Both the position numbers and the translations under genes were made by a program. Below, piece after piece: positions 8,811-43,926 of a stretch of DNA of 64,000 nucleotides; the stretch's first letter is position 1, and every line of letters begins with the position of its first letter. The notes under the pieces were generated by a model, which saw nothing but the letters and a program-made list of their open reading frames with translations, was not told the origin of the DNA and did not search any database. This stretch comes from a virus. Location of the stretch: UHGV virus genome UHGV-0120889; one strand, given 5' to 3'.

Positions 8811-9638
8811 TTATGCCAGTGCAGCCTCAAAATCTTTCATCATATTTTGGAAAGTTTTTGCCTTACTTAAGGTAACACCGTACTCTTTAGCGAAGGTTTG
8901 GAGTGCATCTTTTGAACCACTTTTGTCATCTTCGTTGTTAAGAGCTGCGGCCTGTTTAAGGATTTCATCCTTATTCTCAACGGCTACAAATGAGGAAGAG
9001 GATACAGTCACATCTTGCGGATCTGCTACAGTAACTTCACCGTCACCACCAGGTTCAGTAGGACCTACAGGTGGCTCCGGCTCTGGTTCAGGCGGTGGAG
9101 CTATCGTAGAGACCAGTCCAAGATTTACAACCTGAGAACGTTTCTTAGGCCACTCAATGGTGAAAGTTTGGGTATCTTCTTCATAAACAATGTTGCATTG
9201 CTCATCGTTTATGGTCACTTTTTTAGGCATACCTTCAGGGTCCCACAGATGGCCCTCTGCCACGGAAACTTTGAAAGCAGCATCTACCTCTTTAAACACT
9301 GACGGAGTGAGTGTAATATTGACATCCCCGCTTTGCAGTGTTAAAGTGCTTTCATCAAGGTTCTCTGTGAAGAACAGAAGAATAACACCCATACGAATAG
9401 TTGAGATACCAGTATCAATTGGCAGGCCTGTGTGTTTTGCAATCTTCTCGAAGAAGTCTACAATCGTTCTGCACGGATAGTGAACACTGCCAATAACGAA
9501 TTCTGTTGGTGGCAGCAGGGCTGATAAACCAACATTGATTTCTGGATTGTATTGTGATAAAAATTGATAAAAACTTAACTGATTGTTGAAAACTCTTAAT
9601 AGAGGATCATACTCGACTGGATATACAGCTCTCTTCAC
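8811..9638 (-). CDS. hypothetical virion protein with Pro/Glu linker
   Basis: ORF directly downstream of major capsid gene; PPPEPEPEPPVGPTEPGGDG linker. Confidence 0.4.
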   Translation of the reverse strand: MKRAVYPVEYDPLLRVFNNQLSFYQFLSQYNPEINVGLSALLPPTEFVIGSVHYPCRTIVDFFEKIAKHTGLPIDTGISTIRMGVILLFFTENLDESTLTLQSGDVNITLTPSVFKEVDAAFKVSVAEGHLWDPEGMPKKVTINDEQCNIVYEEDTQTFTIEWPKKRSQVVNLGLVSTIAPPPEPEPEPPVGPTEPGGDGEVTVADPQDVTVSSSSFVAVENKDEILKQAAALNNEDDKSGSKDALQTFAKEYGVTLSKAKTFQNMMKDFEAALA

Positions 9639-9660
9639 GGGACACTCCTGTTAAACCCTA

Positions 9661-9694
9661 ATAAATAAAAAGGGGAGGGGAGAACCCCCTCCCC
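9661..9694 (-). terminator. strong rho-independent terminator after major capsid gene
   Basis: GGGGAGGGG-AGAA-CCCCCTCCCC hairpin 9672..9694, minus-strand U-tract (plus 9661..9671 ATAAATAAAAA). Confidence 0.7.
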
Positions 9695-9718
9695 ATATGG
9701 GATGAATCACCTTAGTGA

Positions 9719-10726
9719 TTATTCACTTTTCAGAGTTACTTTAACAACCAGCTCTGGACGGGTGTTAACTGCCAGCATAGAAGTTTCAGATTCAATCTTC
9801 TCTTCACGCAGGTATGCAGAGTGTTTATACCACATGTACAGTTCCTGTGCTGGAGTGTTTGCTTCGTTAACATCGTCTGCCGGAGCAAAGTGCAGCTGGA
9901 ACATCTGATCAATACCCATCGGCAGAATGCGAGCTTCTTTCTTAGGAATATTGCCAGAGATATCTTCGATAAAGGTGATACCTTTATGCTCAAACACACG
10001 GTATACGCTGTCTTGACCGCCAGCACCCAGACGGCGACGCAAAGGTTCCTGAGCAGAGCCGTAATAGGTGTATGCCAGTTCTACCAGCGGGTGATGAGTA
10101 ACAGCACTGAAGAACTCCGGTGAGCACAGGGCTACAATGCGATAGCCAGCTGCGTTATCACCAGCTTGCAGTGCGATGTGCAGACGAGCTTCTTCCAGAA
10201 CCTCCATAGGATCCTGATCTGCTTTTGCAGGGTCGATCTCAACAGACTTCTGAGACACACCCCACAGAGTGTAGTAATCATACTGGCAGGTAGCGTCACC
10301 AGGTGCATAGGATTTACCCAGAATAGCCTGGAACAGCGCTTTCTCACGCAGTGCTTCATGGGAAACACGGATACGGCGAACAACGCGGGTCACTACGTCC
10401 TGAACAGTTTTCGGAGCATCAGGGGTGAAGTAACGACGGAAGTTCTGGACATCTGCAGCAGTGATGCCTTTATCCAGAGGGAAGAACGGGATGTTCAGGT
10501 TTTTAACCTGAGCACGTTCATTACCAACGTAGTTACGCTCACCACCACGACGGCGTGCTGGAATGTCGGTTACAACTTCATCAACACGCTCAATCTGAGC
10601 AATTGTTGAGGTGCCGAGACGAGTTTCGAACAGATCCATACCGGTAATCAGGCGAAATTGACGCGGAACAAGGTCCAGAGTAGCACCTAAATCGACAATG
10701 CCAAATTCATCTTTACGAGTAATCAT
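9719..10726 (-). CDS. major capsid protein (335 aa)
   Basis: Size, position after scaffold/decoration-position genes and before a strong terminator; typical head-module order portal-protease-scaffold-(decoration)-capsid. Confidence 0.65.
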   Translation of the reverse strand: MITRKDEFGIVDLGATLDLVPRQFRLITGMDLFETRLGTSTIAQIERVDEVVTDIPARRRGGERNYVGNERAQVKNLNIPFFPLDKGITAADVQNFRRYFTPDAPKTVQDVVTRVVRRIRVSHEALREKALFQAILGKSYAPGDATCQYDYYTLWGVSQKSVEIDPAKADQDPMEVLEEARLHIALQAGDNAAGYRIVALCSPEFFSAVTHHPLVELAYTYYGSAQEPLRRRLGAGGQDSVYRVFEHKGITFIEDISGNIPKKEARILPMGIDQMFQLHFAPADDVNEANTPAQELYMWYKHSAYLREEKIESETSMLAVNTRPELVVKVTLKSE

Positions 10727-14308: not shown

Positions 14309-15397
14309 TTAGATAAAACGCTTGAACATAGAAGGTGATGAGATTGATGGAATCACACAAGGAAGTGCTACTTCCTCTTTCTCCAGGAAATTAATAGCAG
14401 AAGCTACACAGTCAGCCCAGTCGTCTTTTCTGTTAAATGTTGATCTTTCCCCGTTGAATTTTTCAAGTTCAGTCAGAAATGCTTCCAGAGTATCAGGATG
14501 GAAACTGGATTTTACAATCCTCACCATTCCTTGTTGGGCAAGATTGGCAAAAGGTGAGAACCTTGTCAGTTTAGATTTGTTGGAAGGCATTGGGTCTTCT
14601 TCAACCCTAAACCCTTCGGCAAGCAAGGATCTGGAGGAGGTTAAGAACTCACTCTTACCTGCCTGACCGGGGTCCACAGAGAATACGATTATACAATCAT
14701 CACCATCAAACTGCGCCTGTTTCCTGATGATCACATCTCGTTCACCAGCCTTTTTACAGAACTTGCCTTCTAGACCTGTGGAATACCTCCCGTCATCCAC
14801 GTTCTCAGGACAATAATCACCGGACAGGTAATAAAAGCCGTCGCTATCTTTACTTACCTTAACACTGGCGGTAAAGTCAGGAAATTTATTACCGGAAGTT
14901 CTCTCGGTTCCTGCCTTATCCCATGCCCTGCAAGATACTGATCCAAGGGGTACTCTATCGGCATCACGAAGGAAAGATCTTTGAAAATAGTTTGCGCCCT
15001 CAGGCTTTGCAAACCAGTTACCATGAAGAAGCTGAGCTTTTTCCAGTTCCGGCAGACCTTCAAGGAAAGCAAGGTATTCTGGGTTGTCTCTTAAGCAAAC
15101 AGGATTATCGAATATTGTTGCGCCTATAAACGAGAATGACAACGGTCTTGGCTTGATCTCCACACCAAGTCCGTTAACCGTGGTGTATTTCTCTATCAAC
15201 TCTTCTTTAGAGTCCCCCCAGATAAATTCACCGTCGCGTCGGATAAAATATCTTTTCTTACCGCATTTCTCCGGATCTGGATACCCTTCATCGTCCAACC
15301 ACCACCTAACCAGTTTGGCAAGCATGTGTTCTGAATCGGGGTTACAGCTGATAACCATTCTTGATGGATACTTTGACTGAGATCGCAGACGAGACAT
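14309..15397 (-). CDS. terminase large subunit, C-terminal (nuclease) segment; 5' boundary approximate (exon 2)
   Basis: Same strand, immediately downstream of the ATPase segment after a ~340 bp ORF-less gap; frame open upstream of first Met to 15433. Confidence 0.75.
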   Translation of the reverse strand: MSRLRSQSKYPSRMVISCNPDSEHMLAKLVRWWLDDEGYPDPEKCGKKRYFIRRDGEFIWGDSKEELIEKYTTVNGLGVEIKPRPLSFSFIGATIFDNPVCLRDNPEYLAFLEGLPELEKAQLLHGNWFAKPEGANYFQRSFLRDADRVPLGSVSCRAWDKAGTERTSGNKFPDFTASVKVSKDSDGFYYLSGDYCPENVDDGRYSTGLEGKFCKKAGERDVIIRKQAQFDGDDCIIVFSVDPGQAGKSEFLTSSRSLLAEGFRVEEDPMPSNKSKLTRFSPFANLAQQGMVRIVKSSFHPDTLEAFLTELEKFNGERSTFNRKDDWADCVASAINFLEKEEVALPCVIPSISSPSMFKRFI

Positions 15398-15746
15398 CAG
15401 ATAGTCTATCTGCTCCCATTCGAATTGTGTCGTTTATGTTCGGGCAAGGTCGCTAGTCTTGCCCCGCCATTTTCAGGCAGCTGCATGTCTCCATGCAGAC
15501 CAGACTATATCTTATAAGCGACAACAACCGCTTATCCTCCCGTTTCGAATCGCTTGATTCTACGTCTTTCGACTAGTCGTTGAACGTTCATCCTCTCGGA
15601 TGCTTCGCTGCGGATTATCTAAATTAACACACTGTTACCATACCTTCGATCTCTCTTCGAAGCCTCTATCATGTTACCATGACAGGTTGGTGGTATTAAT
15701 AGTAAAGATTTCCCCGCAATTAGGGAGGTTTTACGAGAGCTACAAA
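15398..15746 (-). other. ORF-less intervening sequence inside terminase large subunit gene (putative self-splicing intron)
   Basis: No ORF in any frame; multiple perfect hairpins (CTGCATG/CATGCAG, CTTCGA/TCGAAG, GGGCAAG/CTTGCCC); separates Walker-A/B ATPase part from C-terminal part. Confidence 0.5.
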
Positions 15747-16175
15747 TTAACCCTCATCGAAGCAAACCATGGTGTACTCAAGCCCTTGATGGTTAAGCTT
15801 ATCTTGTACATACTCCATGTGGCAGTATTTTACAACAGCTCCCTTTTTGCTTCTATCCCACTTGCCAGTGTTCGGATCAAACCGTGGAAAAATGAACTTA
15901 TGATCCTTCTCTCTGAACTTTGGCTTAATGTTTTCAGGCAGATCACTATAAATAGCTACCGCTTTAGGCCATAGTCCACCCTCACCTTCCAACTGCGGGG
16001 TTGTTCTTCGGAACATAACCACAGAGCTGTGGGGGTCATCAATAATTTTAAGTGGCATCAATTGCAAGAGGAACGACTTGCCAGACCCTGCGGCACCGCC
16101 GATTACCAAAATATCTGCATCGTTTTCGAGGATCATCTTCTGCTTTTCAGAACACGGTCCGTAAATCTTAGACAT
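15747..16175 (-). CDS. terminase large subunit, N-terminal ATPase segment (exon 1; 3' boundary approximate)
   Basis: Walker A VIGGAAGSGKSF and Walker B-like VCFDE motifs characteristic of large terminase ATPase domain. Confidence 0.8.
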   Translation of the reverse strand: MSKIYGPCSEKQKMILENDADILVIGGAAGSGKSFLLQLMPLKIIDDPHSSVVMFRRTTPQLEGEGGLWPKAVAIYSDLPENIKPKFREKDHKFIFPRFDPNTGKWDRSKKGAVVKYCHMEYVQDKLNHQGLEYTMVCFDEG

Positions 16176-17278: not shown

Positions 17279-17355
17279 TGGTCTCCACGGAGTGATTCGA
17301 ACACTCGACCTCCTGATCCCAAATCAGGCGCTCTACCAAGCTGAGCTACGCGGAG
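17279..17355 (-). tRNA. tRNA-Pro (anticodon UGG)
   Basis: Manual cloverleaf: acceptor CTCCGCG/CGTGGAG, D-arm GCTC..GAGC, anticodon loop UUUGGGA, T-loop TTCGAAT, encoded CCA. Confidence 0.85.
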
Positions 17356-17366
17356 TATTTATTATT

Positions 17367-17441
17367 TGGTGGCCCTGGGTGGAATTGAACCACCGTCTGG
17401 CGATTATGAGTCGCTTGCTTGAACCTTCCAGCTACAGGGCC
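17367..17441 (-). tRNA. tRNA-Met (anticodon CAU; could be Ile-lysidine type)
   Basis: Acceptor GGCCCTG/CAGGGCC, anticodon loop CUCAUAA, T-loop TTCAATT, encoded CCA. Confidence 0.8.
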
Positions 17442-17442
17442 A

Positions 17443-17518
17443 TGGTGCTGATGGCAGGACTTGAACCTGCAACCTATTGATTACAAATCAATTGCACTAC
17501 CAATTGTGCTACATCAGC
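17443..17518 (-). tRNA. tRNA-Thr (anticodon UGU)
   Basis: Acceptor GCTGATG/CATCAGC, D-arm GCAC..GTGC, anticodon stem ATTGA/TCAAT loop UUUGUAA, T-loop TTCAAGT, CCA. Confidence 0.85.
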
Positions 17519-17524
17519 AAAAAA

Positions 17525-17623
17525 GGTGCTAGGTGATGGAATCGAACCACCTATGTATTCAACGACTACCTCGTCTATTTTCAGGATTAAAAATCCTCGC
17601 CCTTGCCAAAGGGCTTACCTAGC
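17525..17623 (-). tRNA. atypical tRNA-like gene (possible anticodon UUU; ~30-nt extra arm)
   Basis: Acceptor GCTAGGT/ACCTAGC, D-arm GCCC..GGGC, T-arm GGTGG-TTCGATT-CCATC present, but 99 nt long with oversized variable region and no encoded terminal A. Confidence 0.3.
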
Positions 17624-17721
17624 TCAGTATGTTGACCATGTTGCTAGTCGGCGATGACGACTGTAACATTTGATAATCCGGTTCTGCTTCCGGCTTTCGC
17701 TTAATTACAAGGTCAACAATA

Positions 17722-17812
17722 TGGCTGAGGGTAATGGAATCGAACCATCATCGAGTCATCCTCAACGGGACGGTTTTCAAGACCGCTTGAGCACCATTGC
17801 TCCCTACCCTCA
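17722..17812 (-). tRNA. tRNA-Ser (anticodon UGA), type II
   Basis: Anticodon arm GCGGT-CUUGAAA-ACCGT, long variable arm, T-loop TTCGATT, acceptor TGAGGGT/ACCCTCA, CCA. Confidence 0.75.
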
Positions 17813-17926
17813 TTTATAAACAATACTGATAATGACACTGATTTTCGAGCAGTTAGTGACTAGTATAAACGACGATAAATATCAATGCCATTATCTGTAT
17901 GATTTATGCATTTAAAACTATAAATT

Positions 17927-18013
17927 TGGTGGGGAGTGGTGGAGTCGAACCACCCGAGTCGTAATGACAATAGATTTACAGTCTACACCGCTACCTCTAC
18001 GGGATAACTCCCC
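17927..18013 (-). tRNA. tRNA-Tyr (anticodon GUA), type II
   Basis: Anticodon loop CUGUAAA and variable arm TGTCATTACGACTCG closely resemble bacterial tRNA-Tyr; acceptor GGGGAGT/ACTCCCC, CCA. Confidence 0.85.
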
Positions 18014-18017
18014 AATT

Positions 18018-18092
18018 TGGCACCCCGTACTGGACTCGAACCAGTGTCAACGGCTTAGAAGGCCGCTGCTTTATCCACTAAGCTAACAGGGC
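18018..18092 (-). tRNA. tRNA-Arg (anticodon UCU)
   Basis: D-arm GCTT..AAGC, anticodon arm GCGGC-CUUCUAA-GCCGT, T-arm ACTGG-TTCGAGT-CCAGT, CCA. Confidence 0.8.
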
Positions 18093-21037: not shown

Positions 21038-21592
21038 TTACTCCACGCTGTCAATAGCAAGACTCATTGCAATACGGTATGCCTCTTCTAATGGTAAGAG
21101 TCTCCCCCACACATCCCAACCGACATCAAACTGCCTGCCAAACAACTGCTGTGTGGTTCCGTGAGCATGACCGAACAGTTGGACCGATCCGTGAGGCTTT
21201 CTGTTCCACTTTGCAAACTGGTAATGGCTCATACAGATCAAATTCTTGTTGTGGCGAAGCTCGTAATAATCTACAACCTCATGACCGAACTCTTTCATAA
21301 TTCTGACAGTCGTCCTTGTGTCATGGTTACCACGAACAAGAATAATATGTCCGTTCAACATATTTAGAACATCTGGGAGCAATTTGTTAATATTCTTATC
21401 ATTAGTGCACGCAATATCTCCTAAGTGAAACACAGTGTCTGCAGGTGACACAACAGAGTTCCACTTGGTGATGATCCCCGCATTCATACTGTCAAGATTG
21501 TGATCATACTGAGATCTGTGTTTTTGACATGAGTCAAACTCCATGACCCGCTGGTGGAGAAAGTGTGTGTCGCTTGTTACAAAGTATTTCAT
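21038..21592 (-). CDS. calcineurin-like metallophosphoesterase (putative polynucleotide 2',3'/3'-phosphatase)
   Basis: Metallophosphatase motifs VTSDTHF, HLGDIA, VRGNHD, GHAHG; start at internal ATG 21592 with GAGGAA RBS. Confidence 0.65.
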   Translation of the reverse strand: MKYFVTSDTHFLHQRVMEFDSCQKHRSQYDHNLDSMNAGIITKWNSVVSPADTVFHLGDIACTNDKNINKLLPDVLNMLNGHIILVRGNHDTRTTVRIMKEFGHEVVDYYELRHNKNLICMSHYQFAKWNRKPHGSVQLFGHAHGTTQQLFGRQFDVGWDVWGRLLPLEEAYRIAMSLAIDSVE

Positions 21593-21599
21593 ACATTCC

Positions 21600-22010
21600 T
21601 CATTTAAGTTTAATGCAGTTTTTAAGCTGGCGTTCCATACGATCCACAACCCTGTCTGGAACATCATGAATGCTTTTACTACCATGGCGGTTTTCAACCA
21701 CGATTACGGTATAACTATACCCATGACTGATCGCCATGTCAATATATTCTTGCACATATTTTTCTTTTGTAAATGTATTACTTACCACGATACGGTCGTA
21801 TCCCATACGCATCATATCTTCTACGTTATCTTTGCACCATTTTGCTGCAAGTGTTACTTTACTTGCATCCCAGTTGTAATTTCCATCATCGTCGTACCAG
21901 AACATGTCGTTCTCAAAATGTGGATACAGACCTTCTAAAGATAGCGCACTTGCCAGTGTTGATTTGCCAGACCCTGGTAGACCACGCACGATATATAGCA
22001 TTTTAGACAT
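21600..22010 (-). CDS. P-loop polynucleotide 5'-kinase-like protein
   Basis: Walker A GLPGSGKST, VVSNTF and ENRHGSKS...R motifs resembling Pnk kinase domains; ATG 22010 with GGAGG RBS. Confidence 0.55.
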   Translation of the reverse strand: MSKMLYIVRGLPGSGKSTLASALSLEGLYPHFENDMFWYDDDGNYNWDASKVTLAAKWCKDNVEDMMRMGYDRIVVSNTFTKEKYVQEYIDMAISHGYSYTVIVVENRHGSKSIHDVPDRVVDRMERQLKNCIKLK

Positions 22011-22110
22011 AGTAATCCTCCGTTTTAATTTCAACGATAGTATACCTAACTGTTTTGTTAATTTCAAGTGTTGACACTAGGTTATTTGTGTGGCAGGATA
22101 GACTGACAAA

Positions 22111-23046
22111 ATGACAAATGAGGAACGTATGATGAAGTATTTTAATGCAGACGACCTAGTTGACAAAGGTCTTGTAACCAGCAGATATCACCCAGACCTT
22201 GGGTTAAAGATCTATAAATATGCCAGAAAAGTATTCTACAACAACTTATGGCATTTGTCTCCTCGATTACTGGAGTGCCGAGGCATTGTTGTCGGTAATG
22301 AAGGAAATGTTGTGGCATGGCCCTTTACAAAAGTGTTTAACTTGGGAGAAAACTCCACCAACCTGCCTGACAATAAGCTTGTGACGGCGGTAGAGAAAAA
22401 GAACGGATTCCTTGGTGTGGTGTCATCTCATAAAGGTGAACTATTGTTCTCAACAACCGGGTCTCTTGATTCTCCATATTGTAACCTTGCAAAGGAAACC
22501 ATCCAGGAGCAATGTGGTAATTTAGATCTTATCAAGAAGGTTATGGGCAATGAAAATATGACATTCATGTTTGAAATTTGTCACCCATCAGATCCGCATA
22601 TTGTTCAGGAAGATCATGGCGCATATTTGATAGGTTGCAGATATAATGATTCTGGAATAATGCTACCAGAAGCAGCTTTAGATTGGATTGCCAAATACCT
22701 TGGTGCAAAACGTCCTCACACTGTGCGTGAAATTCCGTTCAGTTATGCAAAAGAATTAGCTGCAGAAACAAGAGGTGAAGGGTATATGATTCGTAAGCCT
22801 TACTACCCTTATGATCTGCAGCTGAAGATTAAGTCTCCATACTATCTGGCACAGAAGGCCGTAATGAGGGGTAAAGCTTGGAAGATTTGGGATGATGATA
22901 TCTTTAAACGTGTTGACGAAGAGTTTTACGGCATGGTAAACTTCATTCGTAACAACTACACAGAGGATGTATGGAACTGCCTCCTGGAGCAGGAACGCCG
23001 TGAGATACTCGATTACTATTTCCACAACGAGAACTATATGCAATGA
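22111..23046 (+). CDS. RNA ligase, Rnl1-like nucleotidyltransferase
   Basis: Motif I KKNGF (lysine ~97), motif IV EGYMIRK, motif V LKIKSPYY; divergent from kinase/phosphatase genes. Confidence 0.6.
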   Translation: MTNEERMMKYFNADDLVDKGLVTSRYHPDLGLKIYKYARKVFYNNLWHLSPRLLECRGIVVGNEGNVVAWPFTKVFNLGENSTNLPDNKLVTAVEKKNGFLGVVSSHKGELLFSTTGSLDSPYCNLAKETIQEQCGNLDLIKKVMGNENMTFMFEICHPSDPHIVQEDHGAYLIGCRYNDSGIMLPEAALDWIAKYLGAKRPHTVREIPFSYAKELAAETRGEGYMIRKPYYPYDLQLKIKSPYYLAQKAVMRGKAWKIWDDDIFKRVDEEFYGMVNFIRNNYTEDVWNCLLEQERREILDYYFHNENYMQ

Positions 23047-23393
23047 AGAAGTTGATTGTGTGGCTAGATGACTTGAGAGATCCGTCAAAGTACGGGCTCC
23101 AAGACGCTGTTTGGCTAAAGAATTCCTCCGAGTTTATAGATTTTATTAACGATAATAGAAAGCTCTACAGACGCGTTTCTGAGTGGCATATGGACAACGA
23201 CCTTGGAGAGGTATTCGAAGGGTACGATTGCCTATCTATGTTGGAGGAAAAATTTGTATTTGGTAAGCCTCCTGTAGTTGACAACGTGAAGATTTTCGTG
23301 CATACTTCTAACCCATCAGCGGCTCGTAAATTCATGCTTGCAGCTGACTCGTTTAAAAAGTTTGGAATAGAGATTAAACAAAACATCTACTGA
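23043..23393 (+). CDS. hypothetical protein (116 aa)
   Basis: ORF track; overlaps ligase stop. Confidence 0.45.
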   Translation: MKKLIVWLDDLRDPSKYGLQDAVWLKNSSEFIDFINDNRKLYRRVSEWHMDNDLGEVFEGYDCLSMLEEKFVFGKPPVVDNVKIFVHTSNPSAARKFMLAADSFKKFGIEIKQNIY

Positions 23394-23401
23394 GGACACT
23401 T

Positions 23402-24163
23402 ATGCGACGACTGATTATTATCTCCGGTGCTGGTTTGAGCGCTGAATCTGGTATTCCCACTTTCCGATCTGGTAGCACTGCAATGTGGGAGAATTTCAGC
23501 ATCGATGAGGTGTGCAACATCCACACCTTTGCCAAGAACTACTATAAGGTGCATGACTTTTACAATGCACGTCGTGTAGCTTTAGGCAGTGTTGAGCCTA
23601 ACCTTGCACATCTTCGGATCGCTGAGTGGTATTCCCGCTGGTCTGGTCGTGTGATCAACCTTACCACCAATGTAGATGATTTGCTGGAGCGTGCTGGTGT
23701 AAAACATGAAGATATTTTACATGTCCACGGGTATTTGCCAGAAATAGTCTATGAGGACGATGAAGGAAGTGACGTCATTAAGGACATTGGATACTCTGAG
23801 GTAGACGCAGGAAAGTATACCTGGGTTAAGCCTAATGTGGTGTTCTTCGGAGAAGTAGCTCCGAAGTATACAGACATGTATGACCTGTTGACTTCTCTTA
23901 CGAGCAATGATATGGTTATCCTTGTAGGGTGCTCCAACACAGTTATCAATTTTAACTGGGAGCTATTCCCTGCCTGCAATAAGGGAACCAAACTACTGAT
24001 CGTTAATAAATACGACTCACAGCATCTAGAGGAGAATGGCATTTCACGTAGTGATATTTACCAGTATGAGGATCGTGGCATCCCAGTTTGGTTTAACGGT
24101 GCGGTTGATGCCTTCTCTGATAAAACATTCATTGAGACTGTAGAAAACTTTATGGAACTTTAA
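23402..24163 (+). CDS. Sir2-family (sirtuin-like) NAD-dependent protein
   Basis: NAD-binding motif ISGAGLSAESGIPTFRS, catalytic HG (LHVHGYL), FFGE and LVGCS motifs; no CxxC zinc-ribbon pairs visible. Confidence 0.7.
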   Translation: MRRLIIISGAGLSAESGIPTFRSGSTAMWENFSIDEVCNIHTFAKNYYKVHDFYNARRVALGSVEPNLAHLRIAEWYSRWSGRVINLTTNVDDLLERAGVKHEDILHVHGYLPEIVYEDDEGSDVIKDIGYSEVDAGKYTWVKPNVVFFGEVAPKYTDMYDLLTSLTSNDMVILVGCSNTVINFNWELFPACNKGTKLLIVNKYDSQHLEENGISRSDIYQYEDRGIPVWFNGAVDAFSDKTFIETVENFMEL

Positions 24164-24176
24164 AAGGAGACCTTTA

Positions 24177-24890
24177 ATGCTGAATACTAAATTAATTGAC
24201 AACCTGGAAAAACTATCCCAACCTGAAAACTACCTTTGGTCTGCCAACTGGGTGGAAAACTGGAACCGTGTGGCAGCTAAAGTGAAAAAATCATACACAC
24301 CATTCGAATTACAGCTTAGCTTCATTAAGGAAGAGTTCAATGAAGTTTTGGAAGAGCTGGAGAAAGGTGATGGTGGAGATCACCTGCTAAAGGAGGCCTG
24401 CGATCTTCACGTTGTCACAAGTTATGCAGCTTATCTTGTTAATGACAATCACGAAAAGTGGTCAAACCTGTTTGATAATCCACGAGGTCTTAAGTTCAAG
24501 ATCGGTGAGTTCTATGACACACTGATCGCTGCGAAAAACACATCCAAGCAAAGAGCGTCAGCTTACCGTTTAGCGGAGTTGTCAACAGCTTTGCTGTTCC
24601 AGCTTCGCGGCGATGTGTGCGGGATGATGCGTAAGGTTCTCAAATCGAATGACAGCAAGTTTGCACGGGTCAACCATCTACGGTATTCACACGGTGCCAG
24701 TGCAGATATGCCTGCTGAACAACTCATAGAGTTGGAGATTAAAGATCTTGAGCGACGCTTTGATGGTCGATATGAAGGTTTTGTTGCTAAGGAAGAATTC
24801 TACAACGGTAATAAAGTTATCATATTCCTTGACAGTAAAGGTAAGATCATGAAGCCTTCGAGCTTCAAGGATGTAGCAGAGTATATTTAA
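24177..24890 (+). CDS. hypothetical protein, possibly MazG-like NTP pyrophosphohydrolase
   Basis: EEFNEVLEELEKGDGGDHLLKEACDLHVV resembles MazG EExxE...D motif; weak. Confidence 0.35.
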   Translation: MLNTKLIDNLEKLSQPENYLWSANWVENWNRVAAKVKKSYTPFELQLSFIKEEFNEVLEELEKGDGGDHLLKEACDLHVVTSYAAYLVNDNHEKWSNLFDNPRGLKFKIGEFYDTLIAAKNTSKQRASAYRLAELSTALLFQLRGDVCGMMRKVLKSNDSKFARVNHLRYSHGASADMPAEQLIELEIKDLERRFDGRYEGFVAKEEFYNGNKVIIFLDSKGKIMKPSSFKDVAEYI

Positions 24891-24897
24891 CAACATG

Positions 24898-24920
24898 GCC
24901 GGGATTACCCGGCTTTACTT
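24898..24920 (+). terminator. rho-independent terminator
   Basis: GCCGGG-ATTA-CCCGGC hairpin followed by TTTACTT. Confidence 0.6.
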
Positions 24921-24923
24921 GTT

Positions 24924-25262
24924 GTGGAAAGTATGCAAGTGAGGCAGATAGTTATGTACAAGCACTCTAGAGATCTTGAAAACGATGCTGTGTTTGGGGA
25001 TCAGATGAAAGAGTTGGTTAAACTTATAGGCAGGATAGAGGATAAGTTTGACACTAAGATCTACATCGACAGCAAAGTATTCAACCACAAAATATGGACA
25101 AATCTGTGTGTTGGACTACATGGAGATAAAGATGTGGTAAATTTAGTTGTAATTAAGTTCATAGTGTGGCAGAATAAAACTATAAATTATTACGATCCAC
25201 ACCTGCTTGTTTACCCAATAAAAGATCTATTAGATAAGGAGGACTGCAATGCCGTTATTTAA
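24924..25262 (+). CDS. hypothetical protein (112 aa)
   Basis: ORF track (start may be ATG at 24933). Confidence 0.4.
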   Translation: MESMQVRQIVMYKHSRDLENDAVFGDQMKELVKLIGRIEDKFDTKIYIDSKVFNHKIWTNLCVGLHGDKDVVNLVVIKFIVWQNKTINYYDPHLLVYPIKDLLDKEDCNAVI

Positions 25263-25518
25263 TCTTGCTAAACCTGTAGAAGCACACCAGTTTGACGGAA
25301 GCTCTTCATCAGTATCTGATCTGCAACGGTGGATTGATACAGGTGTGTTTACATCGTCACCTGTTCGGACCAGAGATCTTCGTCGCATGTGTGAGCTTGT
25401 AGAGCCGTTTGGTAACCTAGTCTTGTACCAGGGTGATTGGCTTGTTGATTTTATGGGGGACTGGTTGGTAATGAGTAAAGAAGAGATGTTTAAAATTTTT
25501 AAGGAAGAGGCCGAGTAA
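25249..25518 (+). CDS. hypothetical protein (89 aa)
   Basis: ORF track; stop overlaps ligase start. Confidence 0.4.
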   Translation: MPLFNLAKPVEAHQFDGSSSSVSDLQRWIDTGVFTSSPVRTRDLRRMCELVEPFGNLVLYQGDWLVDFMGDWLVMSKEEMFKIFKEEAE

Positions 25519-40730: not shown

Positions 40731-41009
40731 ATGAGCTGCGAAAAATCTTTTTTCATCATCATTTACGGTAAGGATAACTGCCCACATTGTGTCAGAGCAA
40801 AAGAATTTGCAATCAGCAAAGGTCTGCCTTTTGTATATAAGACACTTGGCGAGGGCTACACAAAAGAAGAGCTTATTGAGAAGTGCAGTCCAATCGTCCC
40901 CCGAACGTTGCCGCAGATCTTCTTAGAAAGCGATCTTGACAGTATCCATATAGGCGGTGCCGACGATTTCATCTCTTTTGTTAAGAATGGTTTTGGAGAG
41001 AAAAAGTGA
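40731..41009 (+). CDS. glutaredoxin/NrdH-like redoxin
   Basis: CPHC active-site motif in 92-aa protein between nrdB and nrdD. Confidence 0.65.
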   Translation: MSCEKSFFIIIYGKDNCPHCVRAKEFAISKGLPFVYKTLGEGYTKEELIEKCSPIVPRTLPQIFLESDLDSIHIGGADDFISFVKNGFGEKK

Positions 41010-41869
41010 AAGTTGTAAAACGGGACGGTAGAGAAGAGTTCTATAACGGAATTAAGGTGATCAAGGCGGCAGAGTCCGCCTTACTTGAGTCTGGACATAC
41101 TGAAGAAGAAGCTTACCGGATCGCTTGTGCGGTTAATGAAGTTGTTGCTAACAATCTGCCAACCGACCAGTGCACGATCTCTGTAAAAAATATCCATATC
41201 CTTGTTGAAGATGCTCTTATGGATATGGGTTTAAAATGTGCAGCCAGAGAATACATCCAGTATAGACAGACAAGAGATAATAACAGAGAGGCAGGTGGAA
41301 AACTACTTGCAGATATTAGTGGCTTCTTGGATCGAACTTGTGATGAATTTACAAAAGAAAACGCAAATAAGCCCACTAATCATGTACACACTCATCGTGA
41401 CCTGCTTGCAGGCATCCTTAGCAAACACCTTGCATCAACACAGATCCTGCCAGACCGTGTTTCAGAAGAGCACAATAAAGGCTTCATCCATGTGCATGAT
41501 CTTGACTACTTGATCAGTCCGTTAACAAACTGTTGTTTGGTAAATTATCCAGATATGTTGGAAAACGGATTCAACATTGGCAACGCCCATGTCAGTAAGC
41601 CGAAGTCAATAGGGGTTGCAACAACAATCCTTAGTCAAATCTCTAGCGCGGTAGCTAGTGCTCAATATGGTGGTCAGACTATGAGCCATATTGATCATTA
41701 TCTGGCACAGTATGCTGAAGCAACCTATGAGAAGAACCTTAAATTTTGCCAGGAACATTGGTTGCCGGATGCTGAAACTGTTGCAATGCAAATGACAGAT
41801 AAAGATGTATTTGACAGCATGCAGACTTTGCTCTATCAAATCAATACGTTAACCTCTGTCAACGGTTAA
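41006..41869 (+). CDS. nrdD: anaerobic ribonucleoside-triphosphate reductase NrdD, exon 1 (3' boundary approximate)
   Basis: ATP-cone start MKVVKRDGREE, IHVHDLD and NCCL motifs; ORF ends where intron-like sequence begins. Confidence 0.7.
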   Translation: MKVVKRDGREEFYNGIKVIKAAESALLESGHTEEEAYRIACAVNEVVANNLPTDQCTISVKNIHILVEDALMDMGLKCAAREYIQYRQTRDNNREAGGKLLADISGFLDRTCDEFTKENANKPTNHVHTHRDLLAGILSKHLASTQILPDRVSEEHNKGFIHVHDLDYLISPLTNCCLVNYPDMLENGFNIGNAHVSKPKSIGVATTILSQISSAVASAQYGGQTMSHIDHYLAQYAEATYEKNLKFCQEHWLPDAETVAMQMTDKDVFDSMQTLLYQINTLTSVNG

Positions 41870-42717
41870 CAAACTGGCCGTTGTAAAACTCTCCTAACCT
41901 CATAAGAGGGGTCGGTAAATCCGGCTAACGGGGAACGCTAAGGCGAAAGCTATGCCAATCCCGTGACTAGTTCTTACAGGAGTTGGAACGGTTGTAACGA
42001 CTAACGAAAGGCAGAGATGCTTGACAAACATTTCTGAACCAAGTAGTGTAGGGGTTAGTTGAAATACTAACTTCGAAATGGAGAGGCTCTATGAAAAAGA
42101 TCATTCTTAATGGTGAAGAATCGAACTATGTGATTGATGAGGTTGGAAACGTATACGGAAAACGTGGAATGCTACACCCAATATTGTGGGGAGGTTATGG
42201 AAAAGGTAACAAGCATGTTAAACGCCGTTATATGTACTCTTTCAACCACAAAGGTAAAAAGATTCGAATCCAAACCTCAAGGGTTGTTGCCTTGTATTGT
42301 TTGCCAGATGTCCCAGAAGACCCTGAAAACTGGGAAGTGAATCATAAAGATGGCAATACATTGAATGATCATCCGTCTAACCTAGAGTGGGTTTTGCCGG
42401 AAGATAATAAGAGACATGCTTTCCGAACAGGACTTTGTCCAGGTAAGTGCTATAGGAAAGTGCAGGCATACAAAGGGAAAATCTTGGTGGGTGAATATCC
42501 TTCACTCTATGCCTGTGCAAAAGCCTTAAATTTGAACGTAGGTAACGTTCACAGGGCTATCGAAGGAAATGCCGAAGGTAAGCATCTCACAATAAAGGGT
42601 TATTATCTTATTGAAGTAGAGTAAGAGATAGTCTGGCCCTGTGGAAACACAGGGAGGAGACAGCAGACTCCATTCATCACATTAAGTTTAGGACTAGATA
42701 CCTCGGTCTTTGGTAGA
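41870..42717 (+). mobile_element. putative group I intron in nrdD carrying an HNH homing endonuclease gene (boundaries approximate)
   Basis: ~850 bp interrupts nrdD between N- and C-terminal halves; contains free-standing HNH ORF; flanking non-coding parts are structured. Confidence 0.55.
42091..42624 (+). CDS. HNH homing endonuclease (intron-encoded)
   Basis: Classic HNH motif EVNHKDGNTLNDHPSNLEWV; located inside nrdD intervening sequence. Confidence 0.75.
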   Translation: MKKIILNGEESNYVIDEVGNVYGKRGMLHPILWGGYGKGNKHVKRRYMYSFNHKGKKIRIQTSRVVALYCLPDVPEDPENWEVNHKDGNTLNDHPSNLEWVLPEDNKRHAFRTGLCPGKCYRKVQAYKGKILVGEYPSLYACAKALNLNVGNVHRAIEGNAEGKHLTIKGYYLIEVE

Positions 42718-43926
42718 ATGATTACCAAAAACTACTTGAAAGTCCACAAAATGGGTCTTGGTGAAGAACGTATCACACCTGTGTTCCCTAAAGTGCTGTT
42801 CTTCCTGGAAGAGGGTGTCAACATGAACCCTGGGGATCCTAACTATGATTTGAAACGATTAGCTCTGGAATGCTGTGCAGAACGTATCTATCCTGACTTC
42901 GTATCTGTACCACTAAATAGAAAAGTGACAGGCTCGACAGATGGCAAAGTAACTAGCATGGGTTGCAGGAGTTTTCTTAGCAAATACAATGACTTGGAAA
43001 CAGGCGAGGAGAAATACCTTGGCAGATTTAACTTAGGCGTTGTTAGCCTTAACCTGCCAATGATTGCGGCAAAAGCTAAAACGGAAGGTGTTGATTTCTT
43101 TGCAGTTCTTGACGAATACCTGGATCTTGCATACGAGGCTCACCTTGTAAGGGTTAATCGTCTAAAAGGGACAAAGGCAGGGCAGAACCCTATCATGTGG
43201 TGTGAAGGCGCTCTTGCTCGCCTGGACCCTGAAGAGAGTATTGATAAACTCTTCTATGACGGGTACGCTTCCATCAGTATTGGGTATATTGGTGTGTATG
43301 AAACCTGTCAGATTTTGGGCAGAGAGGGTGACAAGGCTTTAGCTCTTGGAATCCTTCAGCACATGAGAGATGCTTGTGAGCGACACAAGAAGGAAAGTAG
43401 ACTAGCGTTTAGCTTGTACGGCACCCCTTCTGAGAGTCTATGCTATAAAGCTGCAACCTGTCTGGATCGTGAATATCCTGAAGTGTTGAAGCACGAGCAT
43501 GAATATCTCACCAACAGTTTCCATCAGCCAGTATGGATCAATAGCTCTCCTTTTGATAAGTGGGAGTATGAGGAAGGTTTTGCTATGATCTCCTCTGGTG
43601 GCAACATCGGATACGTAGAGACACCAAATCTGAAAAACAACTTAGATGCTTTGGAAGCTCTTGTTGATTTCGGATATAAACACATTATGTATTTTGGTAT
43701 TAACCAACCTGTGGATAAATGTCTCAAGTGTGGTTTCTCTGGTGAGTTCAGTGCAACAGCTAAAGGCTTTGTATGCCCAGAGTGTGGAAACCATGAAGAG
43801 GGAACGATCAGTGTAATTCGACGTGTGTCTGGATACCTTTCCAGTCCTAACTCCCGTCCTTACAATAAAGGTAAGCAAGCGGAAGTTATCGAGCGAGTTA
43901 AGCACTACGGAAGTTGTGGTTGCTGA
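42718..43926 (+). CDS. nrdD: NrdD exon 2 (5' boundary approximate; frame open from 42625)
   Basis: C-terminal zinc ribbon CLKCGFSG...CPECGN and glycyl-radical motif RRVSGYL. Confidence 0.7.
   Translation: MITKNYLKVHKMGLGEERITPVFPKVLFFLEEGVNMNPGDPNYDLKRLALECCAERIYPDFVSVPLNRKVTGSTDGKVTSMGCRSFLSKYNDLETGEEKYLGRFNLGVVSLNLPMIAAKAKTEGVDFFAVLDEYLDLAYEAHLVRVNRLKGTKAGQNPIMWCEGALARLDPEESIDKLFYDGYASISIGYIGVYETCQILGREGDKALALGILQHMRDACERHKKESRLAFSLYGTPSESLCYKAATCLDREYPEVLKHEHEYLTNSFHQPVWINSSPFDKWEYEEGFAMISSGGNIGYVETPNLKNNLDALEALVDFGYKHIMYFGINQPVDKCLKCGFSGEFSATAKGFVCPECGNHEEGTISVIRRVSGYLSSPNSRPYNKGKQAEVIERVKHYGSCGC

Follow-up and report, generated by a model that had tools for sequence, protein, structure and literature searches.

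A phage sirtuin without zinc-ligand cysteines, encoded in an RNA-repair operon of a Vequintavirus, as a possible accessory RNA-repair enzyme

Introduction

What does a sirtuin do for a phage when it has lost the zinc ligands that canonical sirtuins need for deacetylation (PMC12700824), and when its gene lies among genes for RNA repair? The question is raised by a gene of the virus genome UHGV-0120889, analysed here as a stretch of 64,000 nucleotides (the window), which comes from a Vequintavirus and shows 99.5% identity to phage slur16.

The Sir2-like gene of rV5-type coliphages, its genomic context and a role in RNA repair have already been annotated or proposed in print. Of the more than 100 phage genomes that match, many already carry a Sir2-like annotation for this gene. 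Iyer, Burroughs, Anantharaman and Aravind (2022, Viruses 14:1977, PMC9503650) have described in section 3.7.3 a neighbourhood of type 2, with phage V5 as the prototype, that comprises a T4-like RNA ligase, cREC, a kinase, MazG and a calcineurin-like phosphoesterase, and have proposed for the phage sirtuin clade a KptA/Tpt1-like removal of RNA 2′-phosphate. Compared with the clade as that section presents it, our locus has the same protein family and the same neighbourhood, and nothing essential differs. The passages of PMC9503650 on phage sirtuins are silent on three features described below: the lost zinc ligands, the change of TQN to TTN and the retention of Y-x-x-R. A search of open-access papers and bioRxiv for experimental work on the rV5 or T5 Sir2 protein, on a phage sirtuin or on a sirtuin together with Tpt1 returned none.

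In this work we have analyzed the protein, its operon and the neighbourhoods of its relatives, and weighed the functions that these features suggest.

Results

The sirtuin gene and its product

The gene of interest is the third of a tight operon in the order Rnl1-like RNA ligase, cREC, Sir2 and MazG-like, flanked on one side by two genes of the opposite strand:

21038..21697, minus strand: calcineurin-like metallophosphoesterase (relatives annotated from 21592); Pfam Metallophos and Metallophos_2, PHROG 547
21600..22067, minus strand: P-loop polynucleotide-kinase-like kinase (relatives annotated from 22010); Pfam AAA_33 40.6 bits, PHROG 2071 and PHROG 505 'polynucleotide kinase'
22111..23046, plus strand: T4 Rnl1-family RNA ligase, 311 aa, operon gene 1 (relatives annotated from 22129); PF09511 RNA_lig_T4_1 55.7 bits vs 28.3, PHROG 562
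23043..23393, plus strand: cREC (cyclic-phosphate processing receiver-like) protein, 116 aa; PF20274 cREC_REC 56.5 bits vs 27, PHROG 1479
23402..24163, plus strand: Sir2-family protein, 253 aa; class III-like sirtuin, same phage clade as T5.102
24177..24890, plus strand: MazG-like nucleotide pyrophosphohydrolase, 237 aa, last operon gene; PHROG 671 E=3.6e-22, weak Pfam PRA-PH E=0.05
24897..24914, plus strand: G+C-rich hairpin GGCCGGG-ATTA-CCCGGCT with a weak T tail, terminator-like in a consensus scan whose site count is not above that of shuffled sequence

The Sir2 open reading frame starts with ATG, 5 nt downstream of a GAGGA ribosome-binding site. Its product matches Pfam PF02146 (SIR2) with E=3e-27 and 96.2 bits (cutoff 24) over profile positions 1-178 of 180, and PHROG 2162 'Sir2' with E=9e-110; the match to the Sir2 family is far above chance. 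The initial annotation had recognized a Sir2 NAD-binding signature and a catalytic HG, and both were confirmed as residues 9-23 (GAGLSAESGIPTFRS) and H109-G110, respectively, while residues 87-94 (LTTNVDDL) include N90 and D92. G9-S23, N90, D92 and H109 are invariant in a 29-member diverse alignment of the zinc-less clade, and VVFFGE is retained in the protein. T89 stands in place of the Gln of TQNID, and a GCSNxVINFNWELFP motif, strongly conserved in the clade, in place of the GTSxxVxP substrate/adenosine loop. The protein is acidic (pI 4.8; clade median 5.1), and no extra conserved basic patch was found in it or in the clade alignment. Phage T5 encodes a homologue of 58% identity (T5.102). 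The domain fusions of ten unusually long relatives consist of tandem Sir2 domains, WG repeats and unassigned extensions and give no hint of a target.

Loss of the zinc ligands

The protein has three cysteines (C38, C177 and C192), and none falls within the 36-residue interval H109-P144, the site of CxxC...CxxC in sirtuins; the lack of this module, asserted in the initial annotation, thus held. No CxxC occurs in any of the 120 closest homologues, and no column of the 29-member alignment contains a zinc-ligand Cys, so the missing ligands are a family trait rather than a sequencing or frame artefact. When the protein was aligned by HMMER to E. coli CobB, the cysteines of the CobB zinc module stood opposite Y117, V134, A136 and G137, so that the former ligand positions are now occupied by hydrophobic or small residues. 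The loss is clade-wide and tracks the TQN-to-TTN change.

The AlphaFold model (pLDDT 88, pTM 0.86) predicts a Rossmann domain and a small helical/beta-sheet domain, with strands 110-118, 124-128 and 142-146 placed at the usual site of the zinc ribbon and a pLDDT above 90 for this beta module. When the model was compared with the PDB by Foldseek, the best 50 listed matches were all canonical sirtuins, headed by E. coli CobB, Sir2Af1 and SIRT5.

Relationship to class III sirtuins and the deacylase alternative

The best sequence and fold matches are class III sirtuins (CobB, PDB 1S5P and 6RXJ; human SIRT5, PDB 3RIY), with TM-scores of 0.7-0.84 and, for SIRT5, a sequence match of E=2e-21. Shared with CobB and SIRT5 are a similar length, GAGxSxxSGIPxFR, the N and D of TQNID, the catalytic His, VVxFGE and Y-x-x-R, whereas the phage protein lacks the zinc-ligand Cys, has Thr for Q140 of SIRT5 and a rewritten GTS loop, and is encoded by a phage in an RNA-repair operon. 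In all likelihood it belongs to a phage-specific sirtuin clade (PHROG 2162) that derives from the class III CobB/SIRT5 type and has had its four zinc-ligand Cys replaced while keeping the beta module, the NAD pocket and the catalytic His.

The main rival to the RNA-repair reading developed below is that the protein deacylates lysines of proteins in an NAD+-dependent manner, as a desuccinylase, demalonylase or deacetylase of class III type. Its substrates would be proteins of the phage or the host; it might, for instance, restore the activity of enzymes acylated on their catalytic lysines, such as the RNA and DNA ligases and the P-loop kinase encoded nearby. The nearest sequence and structure matches (SIRT5, CobB and Sir2Af1/Af2) are deacylases, and the phage protein still has the catalytic His, N90, D92 and VVFFGE. 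The Tyr/Arg motif with which SIRT5 and CobB read acidic acyl groups (Y102/R105 and Y92/R95, respectively) aligns with Y54-x-x-R57, of which Y54 and R57 are invariant across the 29-member alignment. The residues of the CobB acyl-lysine pocket, including positions altered in engineered CobB variants, face the same or conservatively replaced residues in the phage protein (A76/C38, Y92/Y54, R95/R57, I131/V91, V187/V146, plus VVFFGE). Against a deacylase stand the loss of ligands on which deacetylation by canonical sirtuins depends, the Q-to-T change in TQNID and the rewritten GTSxxVxP loop. The NCBIfam CobB models also score far below their cutoffs (NF001753, 122.7 vs 243; NF040867, 103.5 vs 320; NF001755, 92.3 vs 318). 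These scores leave a plain label of CobB deacetylase insecure, and to this extent the earlier view that the protein is not a clean CobB deacetylase was borne out.

Comparison with defence-type and non-deacylase sirtuins

From the lack of zinc ligands the initial annotation had deduced a defence-type, NAD-cleaving Sir2 protein. This deduction failed, and the class was rejected: PF02146 is the only Pfam family matched at E<=0.01, the best 50 listed Foldseek matches are all canonical sirtuins, and PADLOC gave a single match of 34 residues (PDC-S65, E=0.0076), which is not meaningful. Like the defence Sir2 NADases (SIR2_2: ThsA, DSR1/2, SIR2-HerA, SPARSA), the protein belongs to the Sir2 superfamily, has an NAD-cleaving core and is expected to bind no zinc. 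However, in SIR2_2 proteins such as ThsA the zinc-binding beta module is missing altogether (PMC12700824), whereas the model of the phage protein keeps it, and no sensor or effector partner (SLOG, HerA, pAgo) is encoded near its gene.

SirTM (class M) offers the example of a microbial sirtuin with a non-deacylase role; it binds zinc, carries Gln in place of the catalytic His and is encoded in an operon with a macrodomain protein and GcvH-L/LplA (PMC4518038). A SirTM-like ADP-ribosyltransferase was rejected: unlike SirTM, the phage protein keeps its His (H109), and no macrodomain was matched by Pfam in the neighbours of its gene. It also differs from SirTM in having lost the zinc ligands. An ART-fold PTS_2-RNA domain is likewise absent, since the Pfam scan of the protein returned SIR2 alone and the folds listed as matches were all sirtuins.

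The more general proposal of the initial annotation, an NAD+ glycohydrolase or an ADP-ribosyltransferase of proteins or nucleic acids serving host takeover or counter-defence, must be judged on the same data. The residues for NAD binding and nicotinamide cleavage are intact, and sirtuins can ADP-ribosylate (PMC4518038). In related phages PRPP-synthetase-like and NAPRTase-family genes adjoin the same cluster; by their Pfam families they resemble the NARP1 NAD-reconstitution pathway, which suggests local NAD turnover. We consider the proposal improbable nonetheless, with the protein outside the NADase-type SIR2_2 and defence families, its H109 invariant and no macrodomain adjacent, where SirTM has the His-to-Gln change and a macrodomain. 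An unregulated NADase would, besides, harm a phage that needs NAD+, and the domain fusions of the long relatives do not point to a target.

The operon and its surroundings

The start of cREC overlaps the stop of the ligase gene (ATGA). The Sir2 gene follows cREC after 8 nt and precedes the MazG-like gene by 13 nt, and both gaps contain a ribosome-binding site; that of the MazG-like gene, AAGGAG, directly follows the Sir2 stop. The hairpin at 24897..24914 probably marks the end of an rnl-cREC-sir2-mazG transcription unit. The kinase gene is divergent from the ligase gene, with the metallophosphoesterase gene downstream of it on the minus strand, and its homologue in phage RudolfGeigy is annotated 'polynucleotide kinase'. 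All five partners (RNA ligase, cREC, kinase, MazG-like protein and phosphoesterase) are encoded within 2.4 kb of the Sir2 gene, and an array of seven tRNA genes lies 3-5 kb away. Sequence searches with the RNA ligase and cREC against the PDB gave zero matches; by this measure the ligase could be either T4 Rnl1-like or Trl1-like, which bears on whether it requires a 2′-phosphate.

The initial annotation had listed an RNA ligase, a MazG-like protein and a DNA ligase as nucleotide- or NAD-handling neighbours. These three genes are present, but the list missed the cREC, kinase and phosphoesterase genes (identified by Pfam) and its label did not stand: the operon is one of RNA repair, and the DNA ligase encoded near it is ATP-dependent (PF01068). 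The ORFs of the window that are annotated or long include no NAD-salvage gene.

Neighbourhoods of the sirtuin gene in other phages

In Mydovirus-like phages a Sir2 gene whose product is 56% identical is surrounded by the same genes, differently arranged. The association with RNA repair also recurs in three unrelated phage backbones. In T5, a 'Swiss-army-knife RNA repair' phosphatase of the HAD_SAK_2 family (T5.105, 73 bits) is encoded three genes downstream of T5.102; each of 23 close T5-like loci has a homologue of T5.105, and some of these homologues overlap the Sir2 stop. A 608-kb jumbo contig carries a T4 Rnl1-type ligase gene two genes upstream of Sir2, and in a 279-kb contig RlaP and Thg1 genes adjoin it. 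Overall, half of the Sir2 sequence clusters (11/22) have a gene for an RNA-end enzyme within 10 kb. In 9/22 clusters, including that of the phi92-like phage ECO340P2, no recognisable repair neighbour was present, as judged by neighbourhood HMMs that were built from the window's own proteins and can miss distant homologues (the ligase of locus L062 was detected by Pfam alone). The lineages without repair neighbours are, in the present survey, exceptions to the published association.

The T5 genome has no homologue of Rnl, cREC, kinase or MazG anywhere. Sister phages with the ligase, kinase and cREC module have no Sir2 within 6 kb on either side, and five small ORFs lie between their kinase and DNA ligase genes, the place that Sir2 takes in relatives (loci L044, L054 and L057). 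Other relatives carry Sir2 with no cREC within 10 kb. Since Sir2 occurs without cREC and the module without Sir2, the partners are not obligate. Common ancestry could account for the large part of the synteny that is seen among related myophages. A swap of Sir2 for KptA beside cREC was not seen: the neighbours inspected included no KptA, and the 55 cREC matches came from closely related phages only.

These data bear on the deacylase alternative in both directions. It explains the presence of Sir2 in T5 and the phi92-like phage, which lack an RNA ligase, and it accords with the Mydovirus-like phages, in which the Sir2 gene directly adjoins that of the ATP-dependent DNA ligase, yet it offers no obvious account of the recurrent link to three kinds of RNA-end enzymes. 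On balance we regard it as possible but rather doubtful.

The neighbours also bring up a small-molecule derivative of NAD or ADP-ribose as the substrate, from which a signal or toxic metabolite would be made or destroyed together with cREC, MazG-like or Nuc_deoxyribosyltransferase-like partners. cREC and the MazG-like protein are predicted to process small molecules or phosphoesters, a Nuc_deoxyri_tr2 gene adjoins those of two zinc-containing relatives, and the phage protein is acidic and has no obvious RNA-binding surface. This seems to us the least probable of the alternatives: the conservation of the lysine-tunnel residues points to a substrate in the form of a chain, and the sole PF02146 precedent is the CobB phosphoribosyl-transfer activity cited in the passages of PMC9503650 on phage sirtuins.

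Discussion

We favour, with a probability of about 0.35-0.4, an accessory NAD+-dependent step in the repair of phage tRNA or RNA breaks that would counter host anticodon nucleases; a counter-defence role of the protein is plausible. From the observed protein identity, motifs, operon and recurrent neighbourhood we infer the substrate and every catalytic step of this RNA-repair model. In the scheme, which follows Iyer et al. (2022), nuclease cleavage would leave a 2′,3′-cyclic phosphate and a 5′-OH; cREC or the metallophosphoesterase would open the cyclic phosphate, the kinase would phosphorylate the 5′ end, and the Rnl1-like ligase would seal the break. The leftover 2′-phosphate would then attack C1″ of NAD+ bound to the sirtuin with release of nicotinamide, and the 2″-OH, activated by His109, would attack the phosphorus to yield RNA with a 2′-OH and ADP-ribose 1″,2″-cyclic phosphate, which cREC or the MazG-like enzyme might finally degrade.

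By analogy, this proposed chemistry parallels both the Tpt1/KptA reaction and the two-step deacylation by sirtuins. Tpt1/KptA has an ART fold and no homology to the Rossmann-type sirtuin described here. The two would share, as proposed in the phage-sirtuin passages of PMC9503650, the NAD+-dependent removal of RNA 2′-phosphate through a 1″-phospho-ADP-ribosyl intermediate and the same place in a pathway of ligase, kinase and cyclic phosphodiesterase.

The RNA-repair model is supported by the ligase/cREC overlap and the short gaps in the operon, by the company of an Rnl1-type ligase, cREC, a PNK-like kinase and a metallophosphoesterase, and by the non-homologous RNA-end enzymes that accompany the clade in unrelated backbones. 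The nearby tRNA array, the catalytic His retained unlike in SirTM, and Y54/R57 as an anion-binding pair are consistent with it. Against it speak T5, with neither Rnl, cREC, kinase nor MazG, and the clusters devoid of repair neighbours. The acyl-lysine pocket residues are no less suited to lysine than to RNA as the substrate, and the protein is acidic without an extra basic patch. It also counts against the model that the T4-type PNK/Rnl1 pathway, to our knowledge, leaves no 2′-phosphate, and that E. coli has its own KptA.

A further idea is put forward tentatively and is, in our estimate, unlikely: that the protein is the first sirtuin shown to act on nucleic acid, a convergent Rossmann-fold analogue of Tpt1/KptA that would use NAD+ to remove (or ADP-ribosylate) 2′- or terminal phosphates of RNA when the phage repairs nuclease-cut tRNA. 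In that event phosphate would have become the new ligand of the anion-binding Tyr/Arg pair of class III, and the loss of the zinc module would reflect a shift from peptide to RNA.

Conclusions

The hypothesis of a nucleic-acid sirtuin has already been published, and novelty would lie in its proof. T5.102 of the model phage T5 and the Sir2 homologues of BASEL Vequintavirus isolates make the question directly accessible to genetics and biochemistry. Should the protein be a deacylase, it would represent a naturally zinc-free canonical sirtuin, useful for work on sirtuin structure and function. If the nucleic-acid hypothesis is true, sirtuin chemistry would extend from acyl-lysine to RNA phosphate, and the Tpt1 reaction would have evolved anew in phages, as one element of a counter-defence against tRNA-cutting immunity such as PrrC, RloC and PARIS.

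The Sir2-family protein and its missing zinc ligands

23402..24163, + strand: Sir2-family open reading frame (253 residues; ATG 5 bases downstream of GAGGA)

The protein, here Sir2, was matched end to end by the Pfam profile PF02146 SIR2 (96 bits, E=3e-27) and by PHROG 2162 'Sir2' (E=9e-110). The NAD-binding signature GAGLSAESGIPTFRS occupies residues 9-23, LTTNVDDL residues 87-94 and the catalytic HG residues 109-110. Only three cysteines (C38, C177 and C192) are present in the whole 253-residue protein and none in the segment from H109 to P144, the CxxC...CxxC region of sirtuins, which confirmed the initial annotation of a Sir2 signature and catalytic HG without CxxC. In a profile alignment to CobB the module cysteines of the latter stand opposite Y117, V134, A136 and G137.

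The search for homologues at E<=1e-5 gave 861 proteins. Residues invariant in an alignment of 29 diverse members include S16, G17, F21, R22, W29, C38, F53, Y54, R57, R58, N90, D92, H109, G110, E114, G130, Y131, K143, P144, E151, G176, S178, N179 and N202; zinc cysteines occur in no column of it. CxxC was found in 0/120 closest homologues, which are acidic without exception (median pI 5.1; 4.8 for the protein of the window). The more distant relatives on jumbo-phage contigs (~41% identity) retain both CxxC-type knuckles and canonical TQN. A tally of the nearest representatives at 50% identity (144 usable) showed at most two module cysteines in 36 of the 44 with Thr at position 89 and at least three in 78 of the 86 with Gln (odds ratio 44, Fisher p=1e-16, a statistic that ignores kinship). 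Because of this tally and the absence of zinc cysteines from the 29 members and of CxxC from the 120, loss of the zinc ligands is a trait of the whole sub-clade, with a few intermediates, and goes along with a TQN-to-TTN change. No mention of the two together was found in the relevant passages of the literature, and the link is a modest addition to knowledge.

Relationship to canonical sirtuins

The lack of zinc had been taken to indicate an NAD-cleaving Sir2 of the defence type, which was not borne out. Canonical SIR2 was the sole Pfam family at E<=0.01, PADLOC returned nothing beyond a 34-residue match (E=0.0076), and the PDB sequence search was headed by SIRT5 (E=2e-21), E. coli CobB and Archaeoglobus Sir2 proteins. 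An AlphaFold model computed with 29 homologues (pLDDT 88, pTM 0.86) has strands 110-118, 124-128 and 142-146 at the position of the zinc ribbon, and the best 50 Foldseek matches listed against the PDB were canonical sirtuins throughout, with CobB, Sir2Af1 and SIRT5 first (TM-scores 0.7-0.84). In SIR2_2 defence-type proteins the beta module is wholly absent (PMC12700824), whereas its strands are predicted here; SirTM ADP-ribosyltransferases retain zinc and have lost the catalytic His (PMC4518038), the reverse of Sir2, in which His and module are kept and the zinc ligands are gone. Activity as an NADase or ADP-ribosyltransferase, the kind of role that missing zinc had suggested, is regarded as improbable.

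Y54/R57 align with SIRT5 Y102/R105 and CobB Y92/R95, the class III motif recognising acidic acyl groups, and C38, V91 and V146 are the aligned counterparts of the CobB pocket residues A76, I131 and V187. The curated CobB cutoffs were missed by a wide margin. The most fitting description of Sir2 is a divergent class III sirtuin derivative. The initial interpretation is partly supported, in that a plain CobB label is not secure, and unsupported as regards a defence family.

Genomic context and prior annotation

Operon partners and surrounding features are as follows.

Operon partner: T4 Rnl1-family RNA ligase (PF09511)
Operon partner: cREC, 'cyclic-phosphate processing receiver' protein (PF20274)
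Operon partner: MazG-like pyrophosphohydrolase (PHROG 671)
24897-24914: G+C-rich hairpin downstream of the MazG-like gene
Divergently transcribed: PNK-like P-loop kinase and calcineurin-like phosphoesterase (Pfam/PHROG matches)
17279-18092, - strand: seven-gene tRNA array (Pro-UGG, Met/Ile-CAU, Thr-UGU, odd Lys-like, Ser-UGA, Tyr-GUA, Arg-UCU)
15481-15759, - strand: group I intron, complete (Rfam RF00028 at 84 bits; gathering score 50)
15747-16175 and 14309-15397, - strand: terminase large-subunit reading frames flanking the intron

The ligase stop and cREC start overlap (ATGA, 23043-23046), 8 nt separate cREC from Sir2 and 13 nt separate Sir2 from the MazG-like gene; the DNA ligase farther downstream is ATP-dependent by its Pfam match. 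The tRNA array and the RNA-repair cluster are 3-5 kb apart. One member of the array (17525-17623, - strand, 99 nt; Rfam tRNA 35.5 bits) was given 'anticodon atcc' and no identity by ARAGORN. By eye the anticodon loop UUUUUAA yields UUU (Lys), and the extra arm of about 25-29 nt forms its own hairpin, so it would be a class II-like tRNA-Lys; the counterpart in phage RudolfGeigy is annotated tRNA-Lys. It could be a nuclease-resistant substitute for tRNA-Lys cut by PrrC or PARIS.

Elsewhere in the window, the group I intron interrupts the terminase large-subunit gene, whose P-loop GGAAGSGKS is on the upstream reading frame; the phage slur16 record has two separate 'terminase large subunit' CDSs there. 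The same record divides NrdD, the anaerobic ribonucleotide reductase large subunit (~41000-43900, + strand), into two CDSs separated by an HNH endonuclease gene, an arrangement suggestive of a second intron or some other mobile insertion.

Region 22000-25500 shares 99.5% identity with Escherichia phage slur16 and matched 121 records in all (90-99% identity), mostly rV5-like Vequintavirus. Many of these records label the gene Sir2-like or NAD-dependent deacetylase/deacylase, so that there is no novelty in the gene as such. Eighteen records at >=90% identity to this E. coli Vequintavirus region are named 'Campylobacter phage' (host C. jejuni), probably through host mis-assignment or contamination.

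RNA-repair neighbours in other phages

Neighbourhoods were surveyed at 58 viral loci and four further ones reached by exact-protein look-ups, using HMMs iterated on the proteins of the window itself; at 75% identity the loci form 22 Sir2 clusters. The ligase-kinase set accompanies Sir2 in 5/22 clusters, cREC in some of those five only; Mydovirus-like phages have the full partner set in altered gene order. The T5 homologue, T5.102 (58% identity), belongs to the nrdD early operon, and three genes downstream lies T5.105:

L064 (T5) 9589-10095 = NC_005859 57588-58094: T5.105, HAD_SAK_2 'Swiss-army-knife RNA repair' phosphatase (PF18143, 73 bits)

A HAD_SAK_2 gene occurs with Sir2 in four clusters, including 23/23 close T5 relatives. 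On a 608-kb jumbo contig an Rnl1-type ligase (Pfam) is two genes upstream of the homologue, and on a 279-kb contig RlaP and Thg1 adjoin it. From these neighbours it follows that three non-homologous sets of RNA-end enzymes recur near the clade on unrelated phage backbones, which supports the published RNA-repair association.

Homologues of Rnl, cREC, kinase and MazG are all missing from the entire T5 genome, and nothing recognisable was found nearby in 9/22 clusters, a phi92-like phage among them. Metallophosphoesterase, ligase, kinase, DNA ligase and MazG keep their order in one sister phage; there the kinase-DNA ligase interval, the place of Sir2 in L044, L054 and L057, holds five small reading frames, and Sir2 is absent across the 6 kb examined on each side. 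Some other Sir2-bearing relatives have no cREC within 10 kb. For these reasons Sir2 is an accessory of the RNA-repair module and not a fixed component. No informative domain fusions were found.

Two names in the records are wrong: RefSeq calls T5.105 'Sir2 (NAD-dependent deacetylase)', the true Sir2 being T5.102, and in Klebsiella phage vB_Kpn_3 the Sir2 homologue (P0059) is called 'tail assembly protein'. A Nuc_deoxyri_tr2 (nucleoside 2-deoxyribosyltransferase-like) gene adjoins a zinc-containing sirtuin relative at two loci (L063 10713-11198, L069 3859-4380; n=2), a second recurring sirtuin partner. In related 120-153-kb contigs of Mydovirus-like phages and relatives, a PRPP-synthetase-like gene on the opposite strand adjoins the RNA-repair/cREC cluster (L002 1-133, L070 1376-4107, L071 642-3539), next to a NAPRTase-family gene in L070 and L071. 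Together the two genes are reminiscent of NARP1, a published pathway of NAD reconstitution; neither gene was seen in the 64-kb window.

Possible function

Iyer et al. 2022 (PMC9503650) describe this type of gene neighbourhood, naming phage V5, and propose that the sirtuin removes 2'-phosphates as KptA/Tpt1 does, and no experimental test of this was found in the searchable literature. The feature is thus already known, as an annotated gene and a published computational prediction. We tentatively prefer, at a probability of about 0.38, a Tpt1-like, NAD-dependent step in RNA repair, which is chemically natural. The sirtuin reaction begins with attack of an oxygen nucleophile on C1' of NAD+, after which the 2'-OH, activated by His, forms a 1',2'-cyclic intermediate. 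Were the nucleophile a phosphate monoester, the identical two steps would yield RNA with a 2'-OH together with ADP-ribose 1'',2''-cyclic phosphate, and cREC or the MazG-like enzyme might then remove the latter. The fungal Trl1-plus-Tpt1 logic comprises ligase, kinase, cyclic phosphodiesterase and 2'-phosphotransferase. The gene set of the window corresponds to it (cf. a passage of PMC10946426).

Against a Tpt1-like step, the protein is acidic and its pocket and tunnel residues resemble those of a lysine deacylase; the same residues speak for a genuine class III-type deacylase, the main rival and only a little less probable. Also against the Tpt1-like step, E. coli has its own KptA and the T4-type PNK/Rnl1 route is not known to leave a 2'-phosphate behind. 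A small-molecule role is the least probable of the readings considered.

What is new here is a map of where in the clade the zinc ligands are lost and Q is replaced by T, the retention of the Y-x-x-R motif, the recognition of T5.102 as a tractable member and the tally of presence and absence of RNA-repair context. As a finding of a scan Sir2 is of moderate to low interest, which would become high only if an RNA-directed activity were shown.
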